64,000 nt of DNA. Origin: Candidatus Babelota bacterium (GTDB lineage Bacteria > Babelota > Babeliae > Babelales > Vermiphilaceae). The position numbers were made by a program, and so were the translations under genes. Position 1 is the stretch's first letter, and every line of letters starts with the position of its first letter. Below the pieces are notes generated by a model. That model was not told where the DNA came from and did not search any database. It was given only the letters and a program-made list of their open reading frames with translations. Below are positions 12,741-22,015 of this stretch, piece by piece. The DNA is taken from contig JBMOLF010000015.1 in NCBI GenBank assembly GCA_049325595.1, forward strand, positions 1-64,000. Reading direction: 5' to 3'.

Positions 12741-14468
12741 TTAACTAGTCAATAAGTTATTGTTGTAGTGCGTCAAAAAATCTTTTGCAACAGTGGTGGC
12801 CATAGATGCCGAACCTGCATTCTCAAGCAATACTACCAAGACTAAAGGATCTTTTTGTAGTGGTTGATAATAAGAAGCAAGCCAGGCATGTTCAAAGTAT
12901 GCTTTACCAAATTGTTTTTTATCTAACGACGCTACCTGTGCGGTACTTGTTTTTGCATAAATTCGTGCATTTTTTATGTGCTTTAATTTTTTACCTGTTC
13001 CTTTAGTCACCACCGAACGCATTGCTCGTTGTAAAAAAATTCGTGTTTCAGGTTTAATATCAAGATTTTTTTTCACTATAGGTTCATCTTGCAAAATACG
13101 TGGTGTTACTAATGCACCAGTAAAAATGCTACCAATCATGCTTGCTATTTGAATAGGGGTAACAAGAAGATAGCTTTGACCAATAGATGCTGATAACGTT
13201 TCTCCGGGCCACCATTTTTCATTTTTAGTTTCTCGTTTCCATTTAGTAGAAGGGACCAACCCACTTTTTTCGGCAAATAGAACATTAGTTTTTTCTCCTA
13301 GCCCAAATCGTTTGGCATAATCAGCGAGCAAATCAATCGAAATTTTTTTACCAATTTCAAAAAAAGGTTTATTGCAGGAATAAGCTAACGCTTGTTTAGT
13401 AGTAACCATACCATGTCCATAGCGATTATTGCACCAGTATTTACGTTGTGCAAATGGTACATAACCACAGCAATGCCAGGTGTCTTCTATATTTATAATA
13501 TTATGTTCTAAAGTTGCGGCGAGCGTAATGAGTTTAAAGAGCGATCCAGGTGGATAACTGGCATTAAAAGCTCTATTTAAAAATGGTCTTTGTTCTTGTA
13601 TATTTTCCCATTCTTGTATATTTACCGGTGTTAGAAAGAGTGCTGGATCAAAGCTTGGACGTGATACTAATGCTTTAAGTGCACCAGTATGAGGATCCAT
13701 GATAATAAAAGTACCTTTGTATTCTGTTGGAAAGACTGCTTCGGCAATCTTTTGTATTTCAAGATCGATAGTAGAATGTAAATCTTTACCGGCAAGCGCT
13801 TTTTGCAACTCAGTTTCGGCTAGATTTCTTCCCATCGAATTTATAGTTTTAATTTTCGTGCCCTTTTGGCCGCGCAATTCTTGTTCAAATATTTTTTCAA
13901 GACCCATTTTACCTAAATAATCAACATCAATACGACCTAAGTAACCAAGAAGGTGACAGGCAAGGGATTGATAAGGATAACAACGGACAAAGTGGGTAGT
14001 AATACTGATATTTTTTTCTTCAGGAAATTGTTCTACTATTTTGCTTAATTGTTCAAATGAAATATCGGAAGCTAACAAGATTTTTTTGTATTGTTTTTCT
14101 GCATAAGTGATGTTTGAAAGGAGGGATTGGTTTTCTGAGATTGATATATTTAATATAGATTCTAATTTTTTTAAAAACTCATGTTGCTTATCAGTCAGTC
14201 GTTGATTGCCGCATCCATTCCAATAGATATCAGTAGTAGGGCGATTAGTTGCAAGTAATTTACCATTACAATCAAAAATATTACCACGCAATGAGGCAAT
14301 GGTTTCAACACGAGAAAAATTTTTTTTGCTTTGATGATAATAACGATGATTGAGAATTATTTGAAGATAAAACAACCGTACAATAATAATAGATAATATA
14401 ACAGTCGTTGCAATAAAGGTCTTTTTTAATTTTGTATTAAGTTGACTGGAGGCATTATTGCTGATCAT
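12741..14468 (-). CDS. mrdA: Penicillin-binding protein 2 (class B PBP)
   Basis: RLFYLQI, RGNIFDCNG, YPPGSLFK (SxxK), SCN; KTG replaced by KTS; SIGQSYLLVTPIQ. Confidence 0.9.
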   Translation of the reverse strand: MISNNASSQLNTKLKKTFIATTVILSIIIVRLFYLQIILNHRYYHQSKKNFSRVETIASLRGNIFDCNGKLLATNRPTTDIYWNGCGNQRLTDKQHEFLKKLESILNISISENQSLLSNITYAEKQYKKILLASDISFEQLSKIVEQFPEEKNISITTHFVRCYPYQSLACHLLGYLGRIDVDYLGKMGLEKIFEQELRGQKGTKIKTINSMGRNLAETELQKALAGKDLHSTIDLEIQKIAEAVFPTEYKGTFIIMDPHTGALKALVSRPSFDPALFLTPVNIQEWENIQEQRPFLNRAFNASYPPGSLFKLITLAATLEHNIINIEDTWHCCGYVPFAQRKYWCNNRYGHGMVTTKQALAYSCNKPFFEIGKKISIDLLADYAKRFGLGEKTNVLFAEKSGLVPSTKWKRETKNEKWWPGETLSASIGQSYLLVTPIQIASMIGSIFTGALVTPRILQDEPIVKKNLDIKPETRIFLQRAMRSVVTKGTGKKLKHIKNARIYAKTSTAQVASLDKKQFGKAYFEHAWLASYYQPLQKDPLVLVVLLENAGSASMATTVAKDFLTHYNNNLLTS

Positions 14469-15393
14469 TAGATGTTTCTTTATTATTCATACGCTGATTT
14501 ATAGGGTGAATTTGATCACAGAGCCGTGCTAAATTATCAAGAGAAATATGGGTATATTTTTCAGTGCTTGCCAATGTTTTATGTCCTAATAATTCTTGCA
14601 CTACGCGTAGATCAACTCCTTGATTAAGTAAATGAGTAGCAAAAGAATGACGTAATTTATGAGGAGTAATATGTTTGTCTATTTTTAAAAATCCTCTAAA
14701 CATTTCTATAATACGTTGCACGCTACGAGAGGTGAGCGGTTCATTACGGTAATTTAAAAATAAATGTTCATCAGGATTTTGTGATTTTGGACGTTCTTCA
14801 TTCAGGTACTTGGTTAAACGATCTTTTGCTTTCTGGCCAAATAAAGCTATTCGCTCTCTTTTGCCTTTACCAAATATTCGTATCGCTTTATTTTCAAGAT
14901 CGATGTCTTTAAAGCGAATGTTGATTAATTCTGAACAGCGAACACCGGTTGCATACAGTAATTCAAAAATTGCTTTATCGCGTGCAGGTCGGCGCGTTGG
15001 TAACGTATCATCTGAGATATTATCAAGTAAATAAAATATCTCATCAACACTTAAATAAATAGGCAATTTTTTTTCTAAGCGTGGCCGTTGCATAGTAATA
15101 TCAAGTTGAATTCCTTGAGTGCGTAAAAAACGGTCAAATGATTTAAAGCACGAAAGTTTTCGAGCAATAGAAGCTTTACTGATTTTTTTATAATATAAAC
15201 TCACCAAGTAACGCTCAATAATATTTTTAAAACTTAAATTTTCTTTTTCTTCAGCGGTGAGTTTTTGCCAAAACAATACAAATTGCTCAAGATCGGTGGC
15301 ATAGGCACGTTGGGTATGATCAGAGCAGTTTTTTGCGATTGATAAGAAAGTAAGAAATTCGTTTTTTTTCTCTATAAATTGCGTAAGTTCCAT
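14455..15393 (-). CDS. xerC: XerC/XerD tyrosine recombinase
   Basis: LYATGVRCSEL, GKGKRER, TPHKLRHSFATHLL, LLGH..LASTEKYTH. Confidence 0.88.
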   Translation of the reverse strand: MELTQFIEKKNEFLTFLSIAKNCSDHTQRAYATDLEQFVLFWQKLTAEEKENLSFKNIIERYLVSLYYKKISKASIARKLSCFKSFDRFLRTQGIQLDITMQRPRLEKKLPIYLSVDEIFYLLDNISDDTLPTRRPARDKAIFELLYATGVRCSELINIRFKDIDLENKAIRIFGKGKRERIALFGQKAKDRLTKYLNEERPKSQNPDEHLFLNYRNEPLTSRSVQRIIEMFRGFLKIDKHITPHKLRHSFATHLLNQGVDLRVVQELLGHKTLASTEKYTHISLDNLARLCDQIHPINQRMNNKETSNDQQ

Positions 15394-15476: not shown

Positions 15477-18140
15477 TTATTGCAAGCTATATTCTTTACA
15501 CCGTCTATTCACTGAAGATCTATTAACTCCCAGATATTCGGCAATACGAGCTTGGCTTTTGAAGGTCTTCCACAATTGTGACATTAACTGGGGATCTTTT
15601 AAAGCAAGCTTCCCGAGTCGCATTGCCTGTGCAATTTCTGGTTTAATGTCATAAAGATAATTATTATCTTGTATAATTTTGTCTATTCTATTTTGTGCAT
15701 GCTCAAAAACCATTGTTTTAAGATCGTAAAGCGTTGTTGGTTTATAATTTTGAAAAAGAGTGATTAAAAAATCATTAGGAATGGTATTTAGGCATTCTTG
15801 CTTAAGATAATTACTTGCTATATCTGCCAACTCACTTGTTTTGAGCAGTGTTAAGTCGGGCATTGTGAGTATACCTGATTTAAGCTCATCATAAAGTTCT
15901 TGGTAAAATAACCCTTCTTTAACCTGCAAAGATAATTTTTTATGGGTTGAGCAAATAATCCTTACGTTAATACAAACTTTTTTCTGGTTTGTCGGATCGG
16001 TAAAAAAACCATATTTAATAACATCAGCTAGTTGTTTTTGTACTTTTAAATCTAATGCATCAATATTTTTTATAAATAAAGTTCCGCTATTGTTAAGTTG
16101 TTCTAACAATGAAGTTTTTTTATTTTTTTGGCAGTCAAATAATAATTGCTCGTAATCTTCTTCGCTTAATTTACCATCTATAGTATGTAGGATCTGTCGA
16201 GAGCTAGTTTCATGCAAAAAGTTAACTAGTTCGTTTAAGTCTTCAACAGGTGCTTGCAACAAGGTTGCTTTTTTACTTAAGGCAGCTTCTAATAAATCTA
16301 CTTTAAAGTTAAGTAGATCTGGTGCAGAACCAGGAATTAAGGTATTAATACGGTGACCAGGTTTAGTAGTTTCTAGATATAAAAGATAATCAAAACGGGT
16401 TGGATTATTAAGTAATGCTATTTTTTGAGAAATAGATTCGGTAAGATCAGCCCGGCTAATACTGATAATGCAATTGTTTCCTTGATGATTATAAACAGCC
16501 GTTATCATGTAACGATTACCTTTGCCATCACAGGTGTAACAATTATAGGGCGTTTGATAACGTTCAACATATCGCGCACTATTTTTTAGCGACTGTAAAA
16601 GAGGGTGGGATTGGTTATTGCCAATTAAAGAAGCAATTTTTTTTGCGCTATCATTTGCATATTCAAGGGTATTTTTATGACTAAAAATAATACCAATTTC
16701 TTGGGCTTGGCTAGTGATTAAAAATGAACGAATACTTTCTTTATAGTGAGCCAGTTCCAAATGTTTTTTATATAAATCATCTTTTAATTTTTTTTCTTGA
16801 TGAGAACAATGATCAGTGTCATGTAACAAGGCGTTTATTTTAGTAGCTAAATATTTTGCATATAAGATCATTTCATGTCGATCTATATTTGAATACAGCT
16901 CTTTTCTGGCAGCTTTTTGAATGACTATAAAAGCTATCATGCGTTCTTTTTCTATGATTGGCAAAAAAACATCTGCGCTGATTGAATCTAAAAATGATAA
17001 TAGCTTAGCAGTGCCCTCATTTGAGTTATAAAAGTTATTAAGTGCCAAATCATCGTATACTAAAATTTTTTCTTCTTTTATTATCGGGCAAACTAATAGT
17101 CCATGATTGTTTATTAACTGCTCAACGTTATTAATTAAAATACCTGTATTATTAGCTGAGGATGAATAATCCCTGAGTAGCAATACTACATTACAAGATG
17201 ATATTGAAAAATTAGTTTCAAAGAAATGTTCTGTTAGTAGATTGAGTTTTTCGATAGTATTGCAGCTATGAAGTTCTTCAATTATTTCTTTAAATTGATA
17301 GATAAAAGAAGGACGAGGTGAAGATTCAATCAATTCTTTGCAATTAAGAAATCGTAATCGAATTACCCGATACATACAATAACTCATAGCAGCGGTTAGA
17401 AAAAGATTTGAAAAACCAACCAAAATGGGTGAATAGATGTGTATTGAGCGCCAGAAAAAGTGAATGACCATAATAAAATCATATAAAAAAAATGGAACAA
17501 TAAAGGTGCCCATCAATGTTAAAATTTGTTTTTTTAGAATTTTAGGCAAAAAAATATTTTTTGTTTCTCTGAAGGAAAAATATAATAAAAATAACGACCA
17601 AATTCCTTGAATCAATAAGAAAATAGAAGTTATTTTCATAGCGGCTATTTCTAAAGGAACGGTGGCAAAAAGCGATTGTGCAAGATAATAATTACGTTCA
17701 TCCTTACTTAAAAAGTTTTCACAAAATAATGCATCATATATAAAGTAAGAAAAAAGTATAAAACTAATACCTATAAAAAAAAGATTCCCTTTTCGGATTC
17801 TGAATGAGGTGAATATAAAATTATCTAAAAATAAGGCAAAAGCTTGATATTGAACGACCAAAAATGCCCAACCAATTCTAATAAGTGACATAACAAAATC
17901 GCGTGCGATAACTTCTGAAAAAAATAAAATCCTTAAAAGTTTTGTAAAACCGGCAACATCACCTAATAAAGAACTACATATAACACAAATTAATAACAAC
18001 CATAGTTTAGATAGTTGTTTTGAGTGTGAATTATAATAAATAAGTACCGAAACTAATATGAGTTTTGTAAAGATGCATAAAATGATAGCGAAGAAAAAAA
18101 ATAGATTATTATTGAGTAAAAATAAAACAAAATTTAACAT
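15477..18140 (-). CDS. Membrane-bound one-component regulator A: ~7 TM sensor, GAF/PAS-like region, degenerate sigma54-interaction AAA+ domain, Fis-type HTH
   Basis: Hydrophobic first ~260 aa; GTLFIKNIDAL...NVRIICST...VKEGLF; C-terminal SQARIAEYLGVNRSSVNRRCKEY. Confidence 0.8.
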   Translation of the reverse strand: MLNFVLFLLNNNLFFFFAIILCIFTKLILVSVLIYYNSHSKQLSKLWLLLICVICSSLLGDVAGFTKLLRILFFSEVIARDFVMSLIRIGWAFLVVQYQAFALFLDNFIFTSFRIRKGNLFFIGISFILFSYFIYDALFCENFLSKDERNYYLAQSLFATVPLEIAAMKITSIFLLIQGIWSLFLLYFSFRETKNIFLPKILKKQILTLMGTFIVPFFLYDFIMVIHFFWRSIHIYSPILVGFSNLFLTAAMSYCMYRVIRLRFLNCKELIESSPRPSFIYQFKEIIEELHSCNTIEKLNLLTEHFFETNFSISSCNVVLLLRDYSSSANNTGILINNVEQLINNHGLLVCPIIKEEKILVYDDLALNNFYNSNEGTAKLLSFLDSISADVFLPIIEKERMIAFIVIQKAARKELYSNIDRHEMILYAKYLATKINALLHDTDHCSHQEKKLKDDLYKKHLELAHYKESIRSFLITSQAQEIGIIFSHKNTLEYANDSAKKIASLIGNNQSHPLLQSLKNSARYVERYQTPYNCYTCDGKGNRYMITAVYNHQGNNCIISISRADLTESISQKIALLNNPTRFDYLLYLETTKPGHRINTLIPGSAPDLLNFKVDLLEAALSKKATLLQAPVEDLNELVNFLHETSSRQILHTIDGKLSEEDYEQLLFDCQKNKKTSLLEQLNNSGTLFIKNIDALDLKVQKQLADVIKYGFFTDPTNQKKVCINVRIICSTHKKLSLQVKEGLFYQELYDELKSGILTMPDLTLLKTSELADIASNYLKQECLNTIPNDFLITLFQNYKPTTLYDLKTMVFEHAQNRIDKIIQDNNYLYDIKPEIAQAMRLGKLALKDPQLMSQLWKTFKSQARIAEYLGVNRSSVNRRCKEYSLQ

Positions 18141-18238
18141 TATCTCTTGAACTCGCCTTTAATGATATTTATACTACATCTGGTTCAGTAGGTTAAAATA
18201 TAAATTAATAACTTTCAACTACTATCACAGGAGAATCA

Positions 18239-18379
18239 ATGAAAGATCTTAAACGTATATTATATCTTTTAGTTCCCGCACTCTTTGCATTAGCGCTTTT
18301 GCGTTACCCGCCAGATGGTCCAGATAGATCAAGCGATCGTGAACTTGCTAATAATTTTGAGCGCGTTTTCAAACGTTAA
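18239..18379 (+). CDS. Unannotated 46-aa hydrophobic peptide MKDLKRILYLLVPALFALALLRYPPDGPDRSSDRELANNFERVFKR (putative signal peptide/small membrane regulator)
   Basis: AGGAGA RBS at 18229-18234, basic-hydrophobic N-terminus, own terminator at 18403-18427, divergent from regulator A. Confidence 0.7.
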   Translation: MKDLKRILYLLVPALFALALLRYPPDGPDRSSDRELANNFERVFKR

Positions 18380-18402
18380 TAAATAGTTTTAGCAAATAAA
18401 CT

Positions 18403-18427
18403 AAGGCTACCAGTGATTGGTAGCCTT
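18403..18427. terminator. Bidirectional terminator between peptide A and regulator B
   Basis: AAGGCTACCA-gtgat-TGGTAGCCTT perfect 10-bp stem with A/T-rich flanks. Confidence 0.8.
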
Positions 18428-18444
18428 TATTATTTAAATAAGAA

Positions 18445-21153
18445 TTATTCTAAATTATGTTCTTTGCAGCGGCGGTTTACTGATGAGCGATTTACCCCTA
18501 AGAATGCTGCAATTTTATTTTGATTTCTAAATTTATTCCACAACATTTTCATTATTTGTGGGTCGCGCAAGGCATATTTGCCTAACCGAGCGGCTTGTAC
18601 TAAATCTGGATCAGTTAACTGATACCCTCGATCAAATTCTATTTCTTGAGTAATATTATTCTTTTTGGATTTTTGTACTAACAGCTGTTGTACCTTTATT
18701 TTAAACTCTTGCAGGCTTGTTGGTCTGATATTAAGAAGCTTAGAAACATCTTTTTCAGTAATTTCCAAAAGATTTTTAAAATCTTGTGTTTTAATTGCTT
18801 GCTCAGCATAACCATGAACAATTTCACCAAGTTCAACTTCAGAAAGTGCTAAAAGTGAAGGCATAGTTAACGAAGTCTTTTTAAGTTCATCAAATAATGC
18901 TTGAGAAAATTTCCCTTCTTGAACTAAGCGAGAAATGTGTACACTTGATGAGCAAATAATACGAACATCACTAAAAATCTTTTGATTAGCTTTATAAGGA
19001 CGGTAATATCCATATTTTATAAATTCAGCTAAATTTTCTTGGGTTTCAAGATCAAGAAAATGAATATTTTCAATATACAACGTACCAACGCCATTTAATT
19101 TTTCTAACAATGGTTTTTGTGGTAAATCAGCATTTTTTATACTATACAAGGGATTAGAGCCAAATAAGGTTATTAAAATTTCATTACCTTTAGATTGATT
19201 TTGCAAATTCAACACATGCAAGGTTTCGCGCATATTAATATGATGAATAAGCTCAATTGTAGGGATTAAATCTTCAGTTGGCATGTCAATTAACAATGCT
19301 TTTTTACTCAGCGCAATTTCAAGCAAGGAAATTTTAAAATTAAGTAAAGTTTCACTAGAACCAGGAATTAATTGATTAATAAGTTGGCCTTGTTTAGTAG
19401 TTTCTAGATATAACAAATAATCCCATTTACTTGGGTCTTTTAATAGATTTATTTGTTTAAGAATAACATCGGTAATGTCAGGATAATAAACCGTTAAAAT
19501 TACATTATTCCGTTCTAAATTAGGCATACCACAAATAATTAATTTATTTCCCTGTATGTCGGTTGCCATTGAAGTTTGTGGTGATTTATATTCTTCAACT
19601 TGTTGAGCGACATGACGTAATGCTTTTGTTAATGGATGCCCATCTTGATTATTAAGATCAATACCAATAAGATCTTTTGCGCTTTTATTACCAAAAATAA
19701 AACGGCGTTGCTTATAAAAAACAACTCCAATTTCTTTATGTTTAGAAAGTCGCAAGAACGACCGAATACTTTCTTTGTAATAATTTATTTCTTGATGTTT
19801 GTGATAGAGTTCTTCTTTAAGTTCTTTTTCTTGGTGTATGAGTGTTTCAAGATTGCGATGTTGAAGTAAGTTTATGACATTTCCTAAATAACTGGCAAAA
19901 ATAATCATTTCATCGCGATCTACATTGTCATAAAATTTATGTGGTCGTGCAAAACGATCAACAACAATATAAGCAATAATAGTGTTATCTTTATAAATAG
20001 GAATAAATACATCGGCATTAATTGATTCTAAAAAACTAACAAGTGTAGCATGGAGCGATGTTTGCTCATAAAAATTAGTAAAATCTATTTCGTCGTAAAT
20101 TAATATTTTTGAGTTTAAAAGATACGAGTTTAATTCCTGATTGTCACTATTTAATAATGCTTCAACCGCATGTTCGACCTTAGGAAGTTCAGTTTCTGCT
20201 TTTTGGTTGTTTGCACGAAAATAAAGAGTAGTTTTTCCCGTAGGAACTTCAAGTGCTTGTTTAAAAAATGTTTGGGCAATATGGCTTAGTTCTCTTAGGT
20301 TAGTTGCTTGGCTTAATTGAGCGAGAGTATCTTTGAAGTTATCAATGAAGTTAAATTGACTAGTAGTTTGAACGTGATTTTCAAAATTTAGAAAACGAAG
20401 AACCATGATTTGCTTAACACATAGAAAAATGACGGTTGTTAATAATATGGTAGATATACTAACTATGGCAAAACTATTGCCAAAATAACCGGGAAAGAAA
20501 TTAAAAGGATAAACTTGAATAATGTCAGATATTAATCTAGGTATTACTAAAAATTTTATAATAATGCGTAATTGTTTTTGTAAAATGTGTGGTATGTTTG
20601 AATTTCTCAATTTTCTTATGGTAAAAAGAAGGCTTGTGCAACTTAAAAAGAAAACGCTATAAATATTAACCGCTTTCATAAGAGAAAATTCGATTGAAGG
20701 TCTATCTTGCCAAGATAAACAATTAATATTAGTTAAAAGAATAATCAAAAATGAAATTGAAAATAGGAGGGTTATACAAAGGAATATATAATGTCTTTTT
20801 TTTAGTTGAGGAGTTTTTTCTGTTAAACTCTCAATAAATAAAGCTAAAGATTGATACAAAATGGGGCTGAAGCACCAAGCTATTCTTATCCAAAAAATTG
20901 AAATCCTATAATCCATCTGAGGATAAAATAAGAGCTTACTTAGAGTAAGTATCCAAGCTGAATCTTCTATTATTGATGAAATTAAAACCATTAACAGATA
21001 GAATCGCGAATATTTTATAACTGGTGCTGTAGATTGTCTTATGTATACAAAAAATAAAATGATAGATTTAAATATAAAAGATATTACACTAACGGACAAA
21101 GCAAAAGGTAGGCTGCCGAGTATATATTCGAAAAAGTTTAGAGGATTATTCAT
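18445..21153 (-). CDS. Membrane-bound one-component regulator B, paralog of 15477..18140
   Basis: ~7 TM N-terminus; ADVFIPIY GAF-like region; DYLLYLETTK.G; GTLYIENIHFLD..DVRIICSS; NQNKIAAFLGVNRSSVNRRCKE. Confidence 0.8.
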   Translation of the reverse strand: MNNPLNFFEYILGSLPFALSVSVISFIFKSIILFFVYIRQSTAPVIKYSRFYLLMVLISSIIEDSAWILTLSKLLFYPQMDYRISIFWIRIAWCFSPILYQSLALFIESLTEKTPQLKKRHYIFLCITLLFSISFLIILLTNINCLSWQDRPSIEFSLMKAVNIYSVFFLSCTSLLFTIRKLRNSNIPHILQKQLRIIIKFLVIPRLISDIIQVYPFNFFPGYFGNSFAIVSISTILLTTVIFLCVKQIMVLRFLNFENHVQTTSQFNFIDNFKDTLAQLSQATNLRELSHIAQTFFKQALEVPTGKTTLYFRANNQKAETELPKVEHAVEALLNSDNQELNSYLLNSKILIYDEIDFTNFYEQTSLHATLVSFLESINADVFIPIYKDNTIIAYIVVDRFARPHKFYDNVDRDEMIIFASYLGNVINLLQHRNLETLIHQEKELKEELYHKHQEINYYKESIRSFLRLSKHKEIGVVFYKQRRFIFGNKSAKDLIGIDLNNQDGHPLTKALRHVAQQVEEYKSPQTSMATDIQGNKLIICGMPNLERNNVILTVYYPDITDVILKQINLLKDPSKWDYLLYLETTKQGQLINQLIPGSSETLLNFKISLLEIALSKKALLIDMPTEDLIPTIELIHHINMRETLHVLNLQNQSKGNEILITLFGSNPLYSIKNADLPQKPLLEKLNGVGTLYIENIHFLDLETQENLAEFIKYGYYRPYKANQKIFSDVRIICSSSVHISRLVQEGKFSQALFDELKKTSLTMPSLLALSEVELGEIVHGYAEQAIKTQDFKNLLEITEKDVSKLLNIRPTSLQEFKIKVQQLLVQKSKKNNITQEIEFDRGYQLTDPDLVQAARLGKYALRDPQIMKMLWNKFRNQNKIAAFLGVNRSSVNRRCKEHNLE

Positions 21154-21242
21154 TATTTATTGATGTTATAGAATTAGATAACTATAATATTAGTATAATT
21201 TTTATTAATAATAACACAAACAATGTTCGATGGAGTTCATTT

Positions 21243-21326
21243 ATGAAATTCTTAAATGCCTCATTGTGGTCAGCTTTATTAACTATAGTTCTATTATCTA
21301 ATATTATACCTCCATGTGATGGCTGA
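21243..21326 (+). CDS. Unannotated 27-aa hydrophobic peptide MKFLNASLWSALLTIVLLSNIIPPCDG (putative signal peptide)
   Basis: GGAG RBS 7 nt upstream, TAGTATAAT -10-like element at ~21191, divergent from regulator B, PP(C)DG motif shared with peptide A. Confidence 0.6.
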   Translation: MKFLNASLWSALLTIVLLSNIIPPCDG

Positions 21327-21334
21327 TTTAGCAT

Positions 21335-22015
21335 ATGTCTATGGCTTTAAATAATGACCATACTGACCGGGCTATAAAAATTATTCATATTTTGAGAAAA
21401 GCTACTCAAGGTATGGTCAAGCCAGCTTCTGTAACTATTACTGAACAATTTGGTAAAAATCCTTATTTGGTGCTTATTAGTTGTATACTCAGTCTTCGCA
21501 CTAAAGATACCGTATCGCTTCCCGCTTCAATAAGATTATTTGAACATGCTCAAACACCAGAGCAAATGCTTGCAGTCCCAGTAAAAACCATAGAAAAACT
21601 TATCTATCCTTGCGGTTTTTATCGCCGTAAAGCGATTAATATTCATGAAATTAGTCAATCATTGCTTGATAAATTTGAAGGTAAAGTGCCTGCTACCCTT
21701 ACCAAATTGCTTACTTTAAAAGGTGTTGGGCTCAAAACAGCTAATTTAGTGTTAGGAGAAGGATTTGGCATTCCTGCCTTGTGTGTTGACACCCATGTTC
21801 ACCGGATATCAAATCGTCTTGGGTTGGTAAAGACAAAAACACCTGAAGAAACTGAAAAAGAATTAAAAAGAATAATTCCGCCAGAATATTGGATTGAATA
21901 TAGCCATTTAATGGTGATGTGGGGACAAAATATTTGTGTGCCGATCTCTCCATTTTGCACTAAATGCGCTATTAAAGATCTATGTCCTCAAATTGGCGTA
22001 ACCAAATTTAGATAA
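21335..22015 (+). CDS. nth: Endonuclease III
   Basis: HhH LKGVGLKTANLVL, VDTHVHRI, 4Fe-4S C-x6-C-x2-C-x5-C. Confidence 0.93.
   Translation: MSMALNNDHTDRAIKIIHILRKATQGMVKPASVTITEQFGKNPYLVLISCILSLRTKDTVSLPASIRLFEHAQTPEQMLAVPVKTIEKLIYPCGFYRRKAINIHEISQSLLDKFEGKVPATLTKLLTLKGVGLKTANLVLGEGFGIPALCVDTHVHRISNRLGLVKTKTPEETEKELKRIIPPEYWIEYSHLMVMWGQNICVPISPFCTKCAIKDLCPQIGVTKFR

Follow-up and report, generated by a model that had tools for sequence, protein, structure and literature searches.

Two copies of one gene cassette lie between positions 15477 and 21326 of the window, by which we mean the whole analyzed stretch of 64,000 nucleotides from a Candidatus Babelota bacterium (contig JBMOLF010000015.1 of assembly GCA_049325595.1). 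Each copy consists of a gene for a large regulator with a seven-transmembrane (7TM) sensor domain and, divergent from it, a gene for a small hydrophobic protein that carries a Pro-Pro (PP) motif. The cassette looks like an undescribed peptide-signalling unit that has been kept across the phylum. Regulator 1 (15477..18140, minus strand, 887 aa) and regulator 2 (18445..21153, minus strand, 902 aa) are paralogous open reading frames (ORFs) that are identical at 331 of 919 positions (36%) over their full length. They are arranged head-to-tail on the minus strand, and each of them is faced by one small ORF on the plus strand. Small gene 1 (18239..18379, 46 aa) lies 98 nt and small gene 2 (21243..21326, 27 aa) lies 89 nt from the start codon of its regulator, and both have a GGAG-type Shine-Dalgarno sequence 6–8 nt ahead of the ATG. 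The duplicated cassette, its coordinates, the two gaps and the ribosome-binding sites had been set out in a preliminary description of this DNA and hold on re-check. The public protein collection contains small gene 1 as a called protein but not the exact ORF of small gene 2. The public, NCBI-sourced call of regulator 2 is a protein of 653 aa that begins at Met250 and leaves off the entire 7TM domain. The 902-aa form is an open frame and agrees with its orthologs.

The genome that contains the window measures 1.29 Mb in 24 contigs and is 94.96% complete. The closest relative, Candidatus Dependentiae bacterium Noda2021 (record AP025250.1), also has the tandem cassette, at loci L032 and L077, and is kept in culture with Vermamoeba. 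The names Dependentiae, Babeliales or TM6 appear in the titles of further relatives; the placement in the Dependentiae that the preliminary description had proposed was right. Among public sequencing runs no RNA data set containing this DNA was listed, and the only run that holds all of it is a biofilm metagenome, which may have been the source of the assembly.

Conservation of the small genes and their regulators

The small ORFs were searched for in the 420 nt beyond the start codons of 61 regulators from 51 loci and, as a second set, next to 41 further non-identical and non-overlapping regulators. A strict rule called for a divergent-strand ORF of at least 12 aa within 300 nt, with a 13-residue Kyte-Doolittle mean of at least 1.5 and a PP in the last 8 residues. 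Such an ORF faces 41/61 regulators of the first set and 27/41 of the second on the divergent strand, compared with 1/61 and 0/41 on the other strand, which makes 68/102 versus 1/102 for both sets together. In 100 dinucleotide shuffles the strict rule is satisfied on average 0.17 times per 61 sequences and at most twice. The background in the window's genome is 46 matches among 27,204 small ORFs, equivalent to 0.0054 per 300 nt per strand. A loose rule, which accepts any PP-containing ORF starting within 200 nt, finds one in 50/61 regulators of the first set and 32/41 of the second (82/102 together).

The small ORFs behave like protein-coding sequences. Nearly all of them start with ATG behind a Shine-Dalgarno sequence. 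The codons of the first Pro are CCT in 22 cases, CCA in 16, CCG in 11 and CCC in 1, and the third base of both Pro codons varies freely. Among 13 close pairs of small ORFs (370 codons), differences at codon positions 1, 2 and 3 number 126, 71 and 178; pN is 0.27 and pS is 0.56, giving a ratio of about 0.32, which is only rough because dS is near saturation. Judged from these substitution patterns, the small ORFs are conserved genes under purifying selection. The preliminary description had looked to a divergent MK-hydrophobic-PPxDG ORF that recurs upstream of homologous regulators and is kept by selection. This has largely been borne out, the recurring parts being a basic start, a hydrophobic stretch and a PP.

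The encoded peptides have a median length of 32 residues and share a common design. A Lys or Arg lies within the first 10 residues in 43/50 of them, and 45/50 have 8 or more apolar residues in a row. The median length of these apolar runs is 13 residues, and a median of 2 residues separates their end from the PP. In 39/50 the ORF stops 1–3 residues after the PP. Two classes of tail can be told apart. The tail of the Arg class (class A) reads Arg-aromatic-Pro-Pro followed by 1–3 residues and is the prevailing kind between tandem regulators. The tail of the Asp/Glu class consists of Asp or Glu, one or two residues, Pro-Pro and 1–3 residues, and is the prevailing kind before nth, an endonuclease III-like gene. 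From the acidic residue to the C-terminus, 35 of the 41 members of the Asp/Glu class count 6–7 residues. The residue preceding the acidic one is Gly, Ala, Ser, Thr or Cys in 26/41, with an aliphatic residue at −3, a pattern that would fit cleavage by signal peptidase I. Both signal peptidase I and an M50 site-2 protease are encoded in the genome.

In an alignment with nine relatives, small protein 1 of the window, a member of class A, shows a basic N-terminus, an apolar stretch, Arg-Tyr-Pro-Pro and a genome-specific tail. This tail extends 21 residues from the PP, 19 of them beyond the Asp-Gly that follows the PP, and is found in the window's genome only; the small ORF 1 of the nearest relative stops 2 residues after the PP. 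In small protein 2, a basic N-terminus leads into an apolar stretch, after which come Pro-Pro, three residues and the stop; orthologous ORFs are present in the gap between regulator and nth of related loci. The basic start, the single apolar stretch and the PP that had been ascribed to both peptides are therefore real, whereas the Asp-Gly that they share is not conserved in relatives. The motif is accordingly PP, in an Arg-aromatic and an Asp/Glu-x setting, and not PP(C)DG as first supposed.

In four relatives, an acidic-aromatic-PP tail unit is encoded two or three times in tandem behind one signal-peptide-like segment. These multi-copy small genes are found at L117 (upstream of the regulator at 1186), L070:1216-1362, L048:4372-4557 and L061:4380-4571. 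Such a layout is that of multi-copy secreted peptide precursors, and the repetition in the sequence suggests that the tail is the part that functions.

Homologs of the regulator are present in 52/61 relatives and in 152/201 genomes sampled across the phylum, or about three quarters; none was found in the sampled genomes of some families (0/23, 0/9, 0/4 and 0/3). The gene order of a recombinase gene, one to three regulators and a divergent nth is kept in all 21 loci inspected, and 13 of these 21 contain a tandem pair or triple of regulators. Most relatives have a single copy of the regulator, next to nth, to which regulator 2 is orthologous; its orthologs are 50–55% identical across genera. In several relatives (among G025, G029, G005, G152 and G158), copies of the regulator are interrupted by in-frame stops or broken into pieces, and genomes G013 and G035 have many partial copies, which suggests ongoing decay and turnover of the regulator paralogs.

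The small gene is linked to the regulator. Tandem paralogs keep one small ORF each, and the cassette is duplicated as a unit. Eight genomes lack the regulator; in these, nth directly adjoins the recombinase gene and diverges from it, and a PP ORF before nth is present in 0/8 of them (two further loci were not parsed). Hence, the peptide gene goes with the regulator and not with nth.

Domain architecture of the regulators

From its N-terminus to its C-terminus, the regulator consists of a 7TM domain, a GAF-like domain, a signalling helix, a PAS-like domain, a degenerate AAA+ domain of the sigma-54 activator type and a helix-turn-helix (HTH) domain. The preliminary description was right about the fusion of a transmembrane (TM) sensor with AAA+ and HTH domains, and its count of seven TM helices agrees with an AlphaFold2 (AF2) model. 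In regulator 1, the 7TM domain covers residues ~1–270 (17331..18140, minus strand). Its AF2 model has a mean predicted local distance difference test score (pLDDT) of 88.6 and a predicted template-modelling score (pTM) of 0.85, and shows seven long helices and a short helix in the TM4-TM5 loop. No Pfam family matches this domain. When the model is compared with known structures by VIA-align, the top 50 matches are all chains of the G-protein-coupled receptor (GPCR) fold, with Z of 14.3–16.5, a root-mean-square deviation of about 4.4 Å over ~240/286 residues and identities of 5–13%. Foldseek agrees weakly (E ~2e-3, TM ~0.5). On the basis of the model, the likeness of the bundle to GPCRs is one of fold only and not of kinship. 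Near-invariant residues of the domain are Lys26, Leu50, Trp91, Pro199, Gln205 and Pro216; they form no set of a catalytic type, and a role as an intramembrane protease was rejected. Because seven helices precede a C-terminal part that is cytoplasmic, the N-terminus and the TM2-3, TM4-5 and TM6-7 loops would face outward.

Residues 270–600 are modelled as a GAF-like domain, a helix of 58 residues and a PAS-like domain (pLDDT 80.5), a layout that recalls phytochrome sensory modules (E ~1e-4). They are followed by the AAA+ domain (15771..16343, minus strand, in regulator 1). Pfam Sigma54_activat (PF00158) matches the two regulators with 44.1 and 40.5 bits against a cut-off of 20.2, at E of about 1e-10 to 1e-11 (2.3e-11 for regulator 1), and the match covers only the C-terminal half of the profile (positions 82–163 and 69–167 of 168). 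In an alignment to 3dzd, an NtrC-family chain of solved structure, the positions of Walker A, of the Walker B Asp-Glu and of GAFTGA are all replaced, and the same motifs are lost in the consensus of 60 family sequences. A profile of sigma-54 (RpoN, PF04552), which was positive in four known genomes as a control, has no match in the 94.96%-complete genome; sigma-54 was thus not found, which is not proof of its absence. Because the ATPase and GAFTGA motifs are replaced and sigma-54 was not found, the AAA+ domain would be an ATPase-dead scaffold that works without sigma-54.

The C-terminal HTH of regulator 1 (15480..15593, minus strand) is marked by the near-invariant columns 862–881, and the HTH block is the most conserved part of the regulator family in the 60-sequence consensus. 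Its individual profile matches stay under the cut-off (HTH_50 at E 0.0067 and the Fis-type HTH_8 at E 0.17 for regulator 1), and NCBIfam alignments to DhaR, TyrR and PrpR extend through to the C-terminal HTH of these proteins. Neither regulator has a Pfam match to a histidine kinase core (HisKA, HATPase_c) at E <= 1, and Pfam and NCBIfam scans of the regulators give no TPR or Rgg family. In a profile search of 1.84 billion proteins, 412 clusters match at E <= 0.001, and among the matches listed (150 of 412) all have the same architecture of about 900 aa or are fragments of it.

Expression signals and neighboring genes

Both small genes are preceded by a predicted sigma-70-type promoter on the plus strand that begins 7 nt from the start codon of the opposing regulator. 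The promoter of small gene 1 (18147..18175) reads TTGAAC, a spacer of 17 nt and TATACT; that of small gene 2 (21160..21188) reads TTGATG, a spacer of 17 nt and TATAAT, and is kept in the nearest relative. A generic promoter scan of this region yields 21 sites against 20 expected and is uninformative alone, so that the predicted promoters carry weight only because of their conservation across genomes. On the strand of the small ORF, the near-consensus pattern TTGnnn, 16–18 nt spacer, TATA[AC]T is present in 37/50 and 25/41 loci, as compared with 1/50 and 1/41 on the other strand and 0/273 background windows, and the −35 box begins a median of 7 nt from the regulator start codon across loci. Because the promoter abuts this start codon, the regulator transcript must cross the small-gene promoter, and the two transcription units would interfere with each other.

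The promoter of the regulator itself is less clear. An extended −10 motif (TGnTAnnnT) lies on the regulator strand at −12 to +45 nt of the small-ORF stop in 34/50 loci, compared with 3/50 on the other strand and 8% in the background. This position would put the regulator leader antisense to the whole small gene. The extended −10 of the window is unconvincing: one match lies inside the stem of a terminator and cassette 2 has none. The predicted promoter of small gene 1 and its 5′ leader (18182..18238) are better conserved than the small ORF between the window and the nearest relative (L032), and the regulator 1 promoter or an operator may lie within this leader. The leader has no stable fold (z = −0.5) and matches no Rfam family; both predicted 5′ leaders fold no better than shuffled sequences, and an Rfam scan of 18000..21500 gives no family at E <= 1.

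Small gene 1 and the end of the gene for regulator 2 are separated by a strong bidirectional intrinsic terminator (18403..18427, −18.4 kcal/mol, z = −4.0). On the far side of small gene 2, nth (21335..22015, plus strand) is a conserved neighbor by synteny that stands outside the cassette, and thrS comes next. The stop of small ORF 2 is only 8 nt from the nth start codon. In relatives, ~70–110 nt with an extended −10 motif lie in between, whereas in the window's genome nth may be co-transcribed with small gene 2. The other flank of the cassette is formed by the conserved xerC/D-like recombinase gene (14455..15393, minus strand). Its end overlaps the start of a penicillin-binding-protein-like gene (12741..14468, minus strand) by 14 nt (14455..14468), and the two probably form one operon because of this overlap.

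Peptide sensing and the alternatives to it

Tentatively, and at somewhat less than an even chance, we favor the view that each cassette is a two-gene unit in which an exported peptide is sensed by, or modulates, the neighboring 7TM one-component regulator. The small gene would give rise to a precursor of about 25–35 residues, in which a basic N-terminus is followed by an apolar segment for export or anchoring and by a short PP tail. Export of the precursor would leave the tail exposed outside the cytoplasmic membrane or release it there. In the Asp/Glu class the tail may be released as a peptide of 6–7 residues, with signal peptidase I or the M50 site-2 protease as candidate cutters. The tail would then be sensed by, or modulate, the extracytoplasmic face of the GPCR-like 7TM bundle of its neighbor. 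From there the signal would pass through the GAF-like domain, the signalling helix, the PAS-like domain and the ATPase-dead AAA+ scaffold to the C-terminal HTH, which would act on sigma-70 promoters without sigma-54. Interference between the head-to-head, overlapping transcription units may allow the regulator/peptide pair to act as a switch.

On a tree of 101 regulators, peptide class changes 32 times, compared with 50.7 times in shuffles, and a number as low is reached in 0/200 of them. One starred clade of 38 rows, which includes regulator 2, has 28 peptides of the Asp/Glu type, and another starred clade of 19 rows has 10 of the Arg type; regulator 1 and its nearest ortholog fall into a separate, longer-branched group. 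The preliminary description had expected the peptide to co-vary with the TM sensor. The classes do cluster on the receptor tree; however, co-inheritance explains this clustering, and only four well-supported independent switches of peptide class exist on the tree, which are too few for a case of co-evolution. The position that corresponds to residue 148 of regulator 1 (~17697..17699), in the outer loop between TM4 and TM5, is acidic in 92% of the receptors paired with Arg-type peptides and in 37% of those paired with Asp/Glu-type peptides, in a column chosen post hoc among ~600 column-by-charge tests. Three switches within clades point the same way. Independent contrasts over four pairs give ~2.9 in the same direction, 0.1 in the opposite one and 1.0 without a difference (p ~0.25), so that this charge covariation is not significant and is a lead only. 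A complex prediction for the 7TM domain of regulator 1 (60-row alignment) and the 46-aa protein (10-row alignment) scored 0.00 with controls not run, and is evidence neither way.

Several observations weigh against the sensing of a short exported peptide. The PP rule labels 19/101 regulators as having no small ORF, although in at least 10 of these 19 loci a hydrophobic small ORF with a Shine-Dalgarno sequence is present whose tail bears Pro without Pro-Pro. The downstream paralog is without a recognizable small ORF in two tandem pairs, whose gaps measure 87 and 105 nt. The PP need not be near the C-terminus, because small protein 1 runs 19–21 residues past it. Class A has no small residue ahead of the Arg and hence no signal-peptidase-like site. 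The clustering of peptide classes on the tree is expected from common descent and alone is no proof of co-evolution. The GPCR-like similarity of the modelled bundle is at the level of fold, as is usual among seven-helix bundles, and VIA-align advises caution below a Z of about 13 for helical bundles. Moreover, the cytoplasmic GAF-like and PAS-like domains could take a different, intracellular signal.

The arrangement of the cassette recalls the RRNPP systems. In Rgg/SHP of streptococci and PrgX/PrgQ of the Enterococcus plasmid pCF10, a tiny gene lies beside, divergent from or overlapping the regulator gene and encodes a precursor with a basic start and a hydrophobic body, whose active part is formed by the last ~7–8 residues, often starting with Asp or Glu. 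Likewise, a small hydrophobic precursor gene adjoins the receptor gene here, and an Eep-type M50 protease is available in the genome. However, the receptor is a 7TM membrane protein and not a cytoplasmic TPR-HTH protein, the tail is based on Pro-Pro and not aliphatic, and the organism is a Dependentiae bacterium and not a Gram-positive one. An Opp-type binding protein was not found with PF00496 (0 matches in the window's genome; positive in 11 known genomes as a control), and re-import into the cytoplasm in the RRNPP manner would therefore be without its usual route. The promoters of prgQ and prgX face each other. In the cassette the peptide promoter is well supported, and the extended −10 on the regulator strand, present in 34/50 loci, is unclear in both copies of the window.

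In its proposed mode of sensing, the cassette resembles Agr (AgrC/AgrD) and Com (ComD with the CSP peptide), in that a polytopic membrane sensor domain would bind a self-made, exported peptide at its outer face. In contrast to both, it has no histidine kinase, receiver or separate response regulator, since the sensor and the DNA-binding domain are in one polypeptide, and in contrast to Agr it contains no AgrB-type processing gene. The C-terminal part resembles enhancer-binding proteins such as NtrC, PspF, DhaR and TyrR in that Sigma54_activat scores above the cut-off and alignments reach the HTH. It differs from them by the N-terminal 7TM domain and by the replaced ATPase and GAFTGA motifs; with these motifs replaced and sigma-54 not found, the regulator cannot be an ATP-driven sigma-54 activator. 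Bacterial 7TM sensor modules are known from the idea of 7TMR-DISM, and a seven-helix N-terminal membrane module ahead of cytoplasmic signalling domains is also the layout of HisKA_7TM (PF16927). An Atlas feature score of 0.90 to the HisKA_7TM cluster and structural TM-scores of 0.62–0.65 are leads only, and the PF16927 profile matches 0/60 TM domains of the family at E <= 1. MgrB and SafA are small membrane proteins that modulate the membrane sensor PhoQ, and ToxR and CadC are membrane-anchored transcription factors that bind DNA directly, with one TM helix and an N-terminal DNA-binding domain. MgrB, SafA, ToxR and CadC have no sequence or architectural relation to the cassette.

In one alternative, the small protein would remain in the membrane as a single helix packed on the 7TM bundle and tune it as an anchored accessory subunit, and the PP tail would form a short cap in the periplasm. 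Pairing and co-duplication with the receptor support this as much as they do a sensed peptide, and both the missing signal-peptidase-like site of class A and the apolar run, with its median length of 13 residues and its end 2 residues before the PP, would suit it. A run of 13 residues is short, however, for a stable transmembrane helix. Moreover, the fixed tail of 6–7 residues in the Asp/Glu class, often with a small residue at −1, speaks against an anchored subunit, and the tandem tails behind one hydrophobic segment in L117, L070, L048 and L061 make little sense in an anchored subunit. We consider such a subunit unlikely.

It is also improbable that the small gene is a regulated output only, namely the main target of the regulator, with a product that is, for example, secreted to the host or the envelope and does not feed back on the 7TM domain. 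The conserved divergent promoter with one shared control region is what such a target gene would have, and the GAF-like and PAS-like domains offer the regulator other means of sensing. Furthermore, the relatives are intracellular protist parasites with many secreted proteins, according to the Chromulinavorax genome paper (PMC6561590). However, a mere output leaves unexplained why each paralog has its own distinct peptide class after duplication and why the class changes between very close receptors (L081 versus L086).

A third possibility, which we regard as quite improbable, is a device that acts in cis, in which transcription or translation of the small ORF over the 5′ region of the regulator matters and the peptide itself has no role. 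Antisense overlap, promoter interference, or slow termination at the Pro-Pro that reports on EF-P or proline could each serve as its route. The abutting of the small-gene promoter on the regulator start codon, the extended −10 past the small ORF in 34/50 loci, the PP 1–3 codons ahead of the stop in 39/50 and the better conservation of promoter and leader than of the ORF in cassette 1, as compared with the nearest relative, all agree with such a device. However, the basic start, the hydrophobic N-terminal design, the class-specific residues before the PP and the repeated tail units are conserved as protein, and a dN/dS of ~0.3 extends across the whole small ORF. An arrest peptide that senses force in the manner of SecM, MifM or ApdA was rejected, because the apolar stretch lies directly before the PP and would still be inside the ribosome at the stall, and no downstream gene exists between tandem regulators. 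A precursor of a ribosomally synthesized and post-translationally modified peptide was also rejected, as the conserved neighborhood contains no genes for modifying enzymes. Finally, the AT-rich DNA contains many short ORFs and the stop of ORF2 is 8 nt before the nth start codon, but chance ORFs or a leader ORF of nth have a negligible probability and are excluded by the near-zero shuffle, other-strand and genome controls and by the 0/8 genomes without the regulator that have a PP ORF before nth. Like ORFs also lie between tandem regulators where no gene follows, and the distance to nth ranges from 8 to more than 100 nt.

A search of the full-text literature (supplementary files not included) found no description of the regulator family or of the cassette. 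A passage of the Chromulinavorax genome paper states that quorum-sensing mechanisms are absent (PMC6561590), and a term search of the text of the TM6 comparative paper matched once only, in the reference list (PMC4776705). For annotation, the comparison reveals about 80 small genes that were missed or left uncalled and at least one regulator that was deposited without its 7TM domain.

In its boldest form, which is possible yet doubtful, the proposal amounts to a third class of receptor for bacterial peptide signals, in which a GPCR-like 7TM domain fused to a transcription factor reads a self-made, exported PP peptide of 6–7 residues that is encoded head-to-head with it. Such receptors would be phylum-wide, with orthogonal Arg and Asp/Glu channels in one cell, and would sense the cell's own density or its confinement in a host compartment to time a developmental switch; that they count bacteria in the vacuole is speculation. 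The phylum Dependentiae is widespread and almost without cultured members; these parasites of protists have genomes of ~1 Mb that encode very few regulators. If peptide sensing is confirmed, the cassette would rank among the main signalling devices of the phylum. It would also provide a concrete and synthesizable ligand candidate for a bacterial GPCR-like 7TM domain, in a family without a known ligand, and it would mean that the scaffold of a sigma-54 activator can be recycled, with its ATPase dead, in a lineage in which no sigma-54 has been found.

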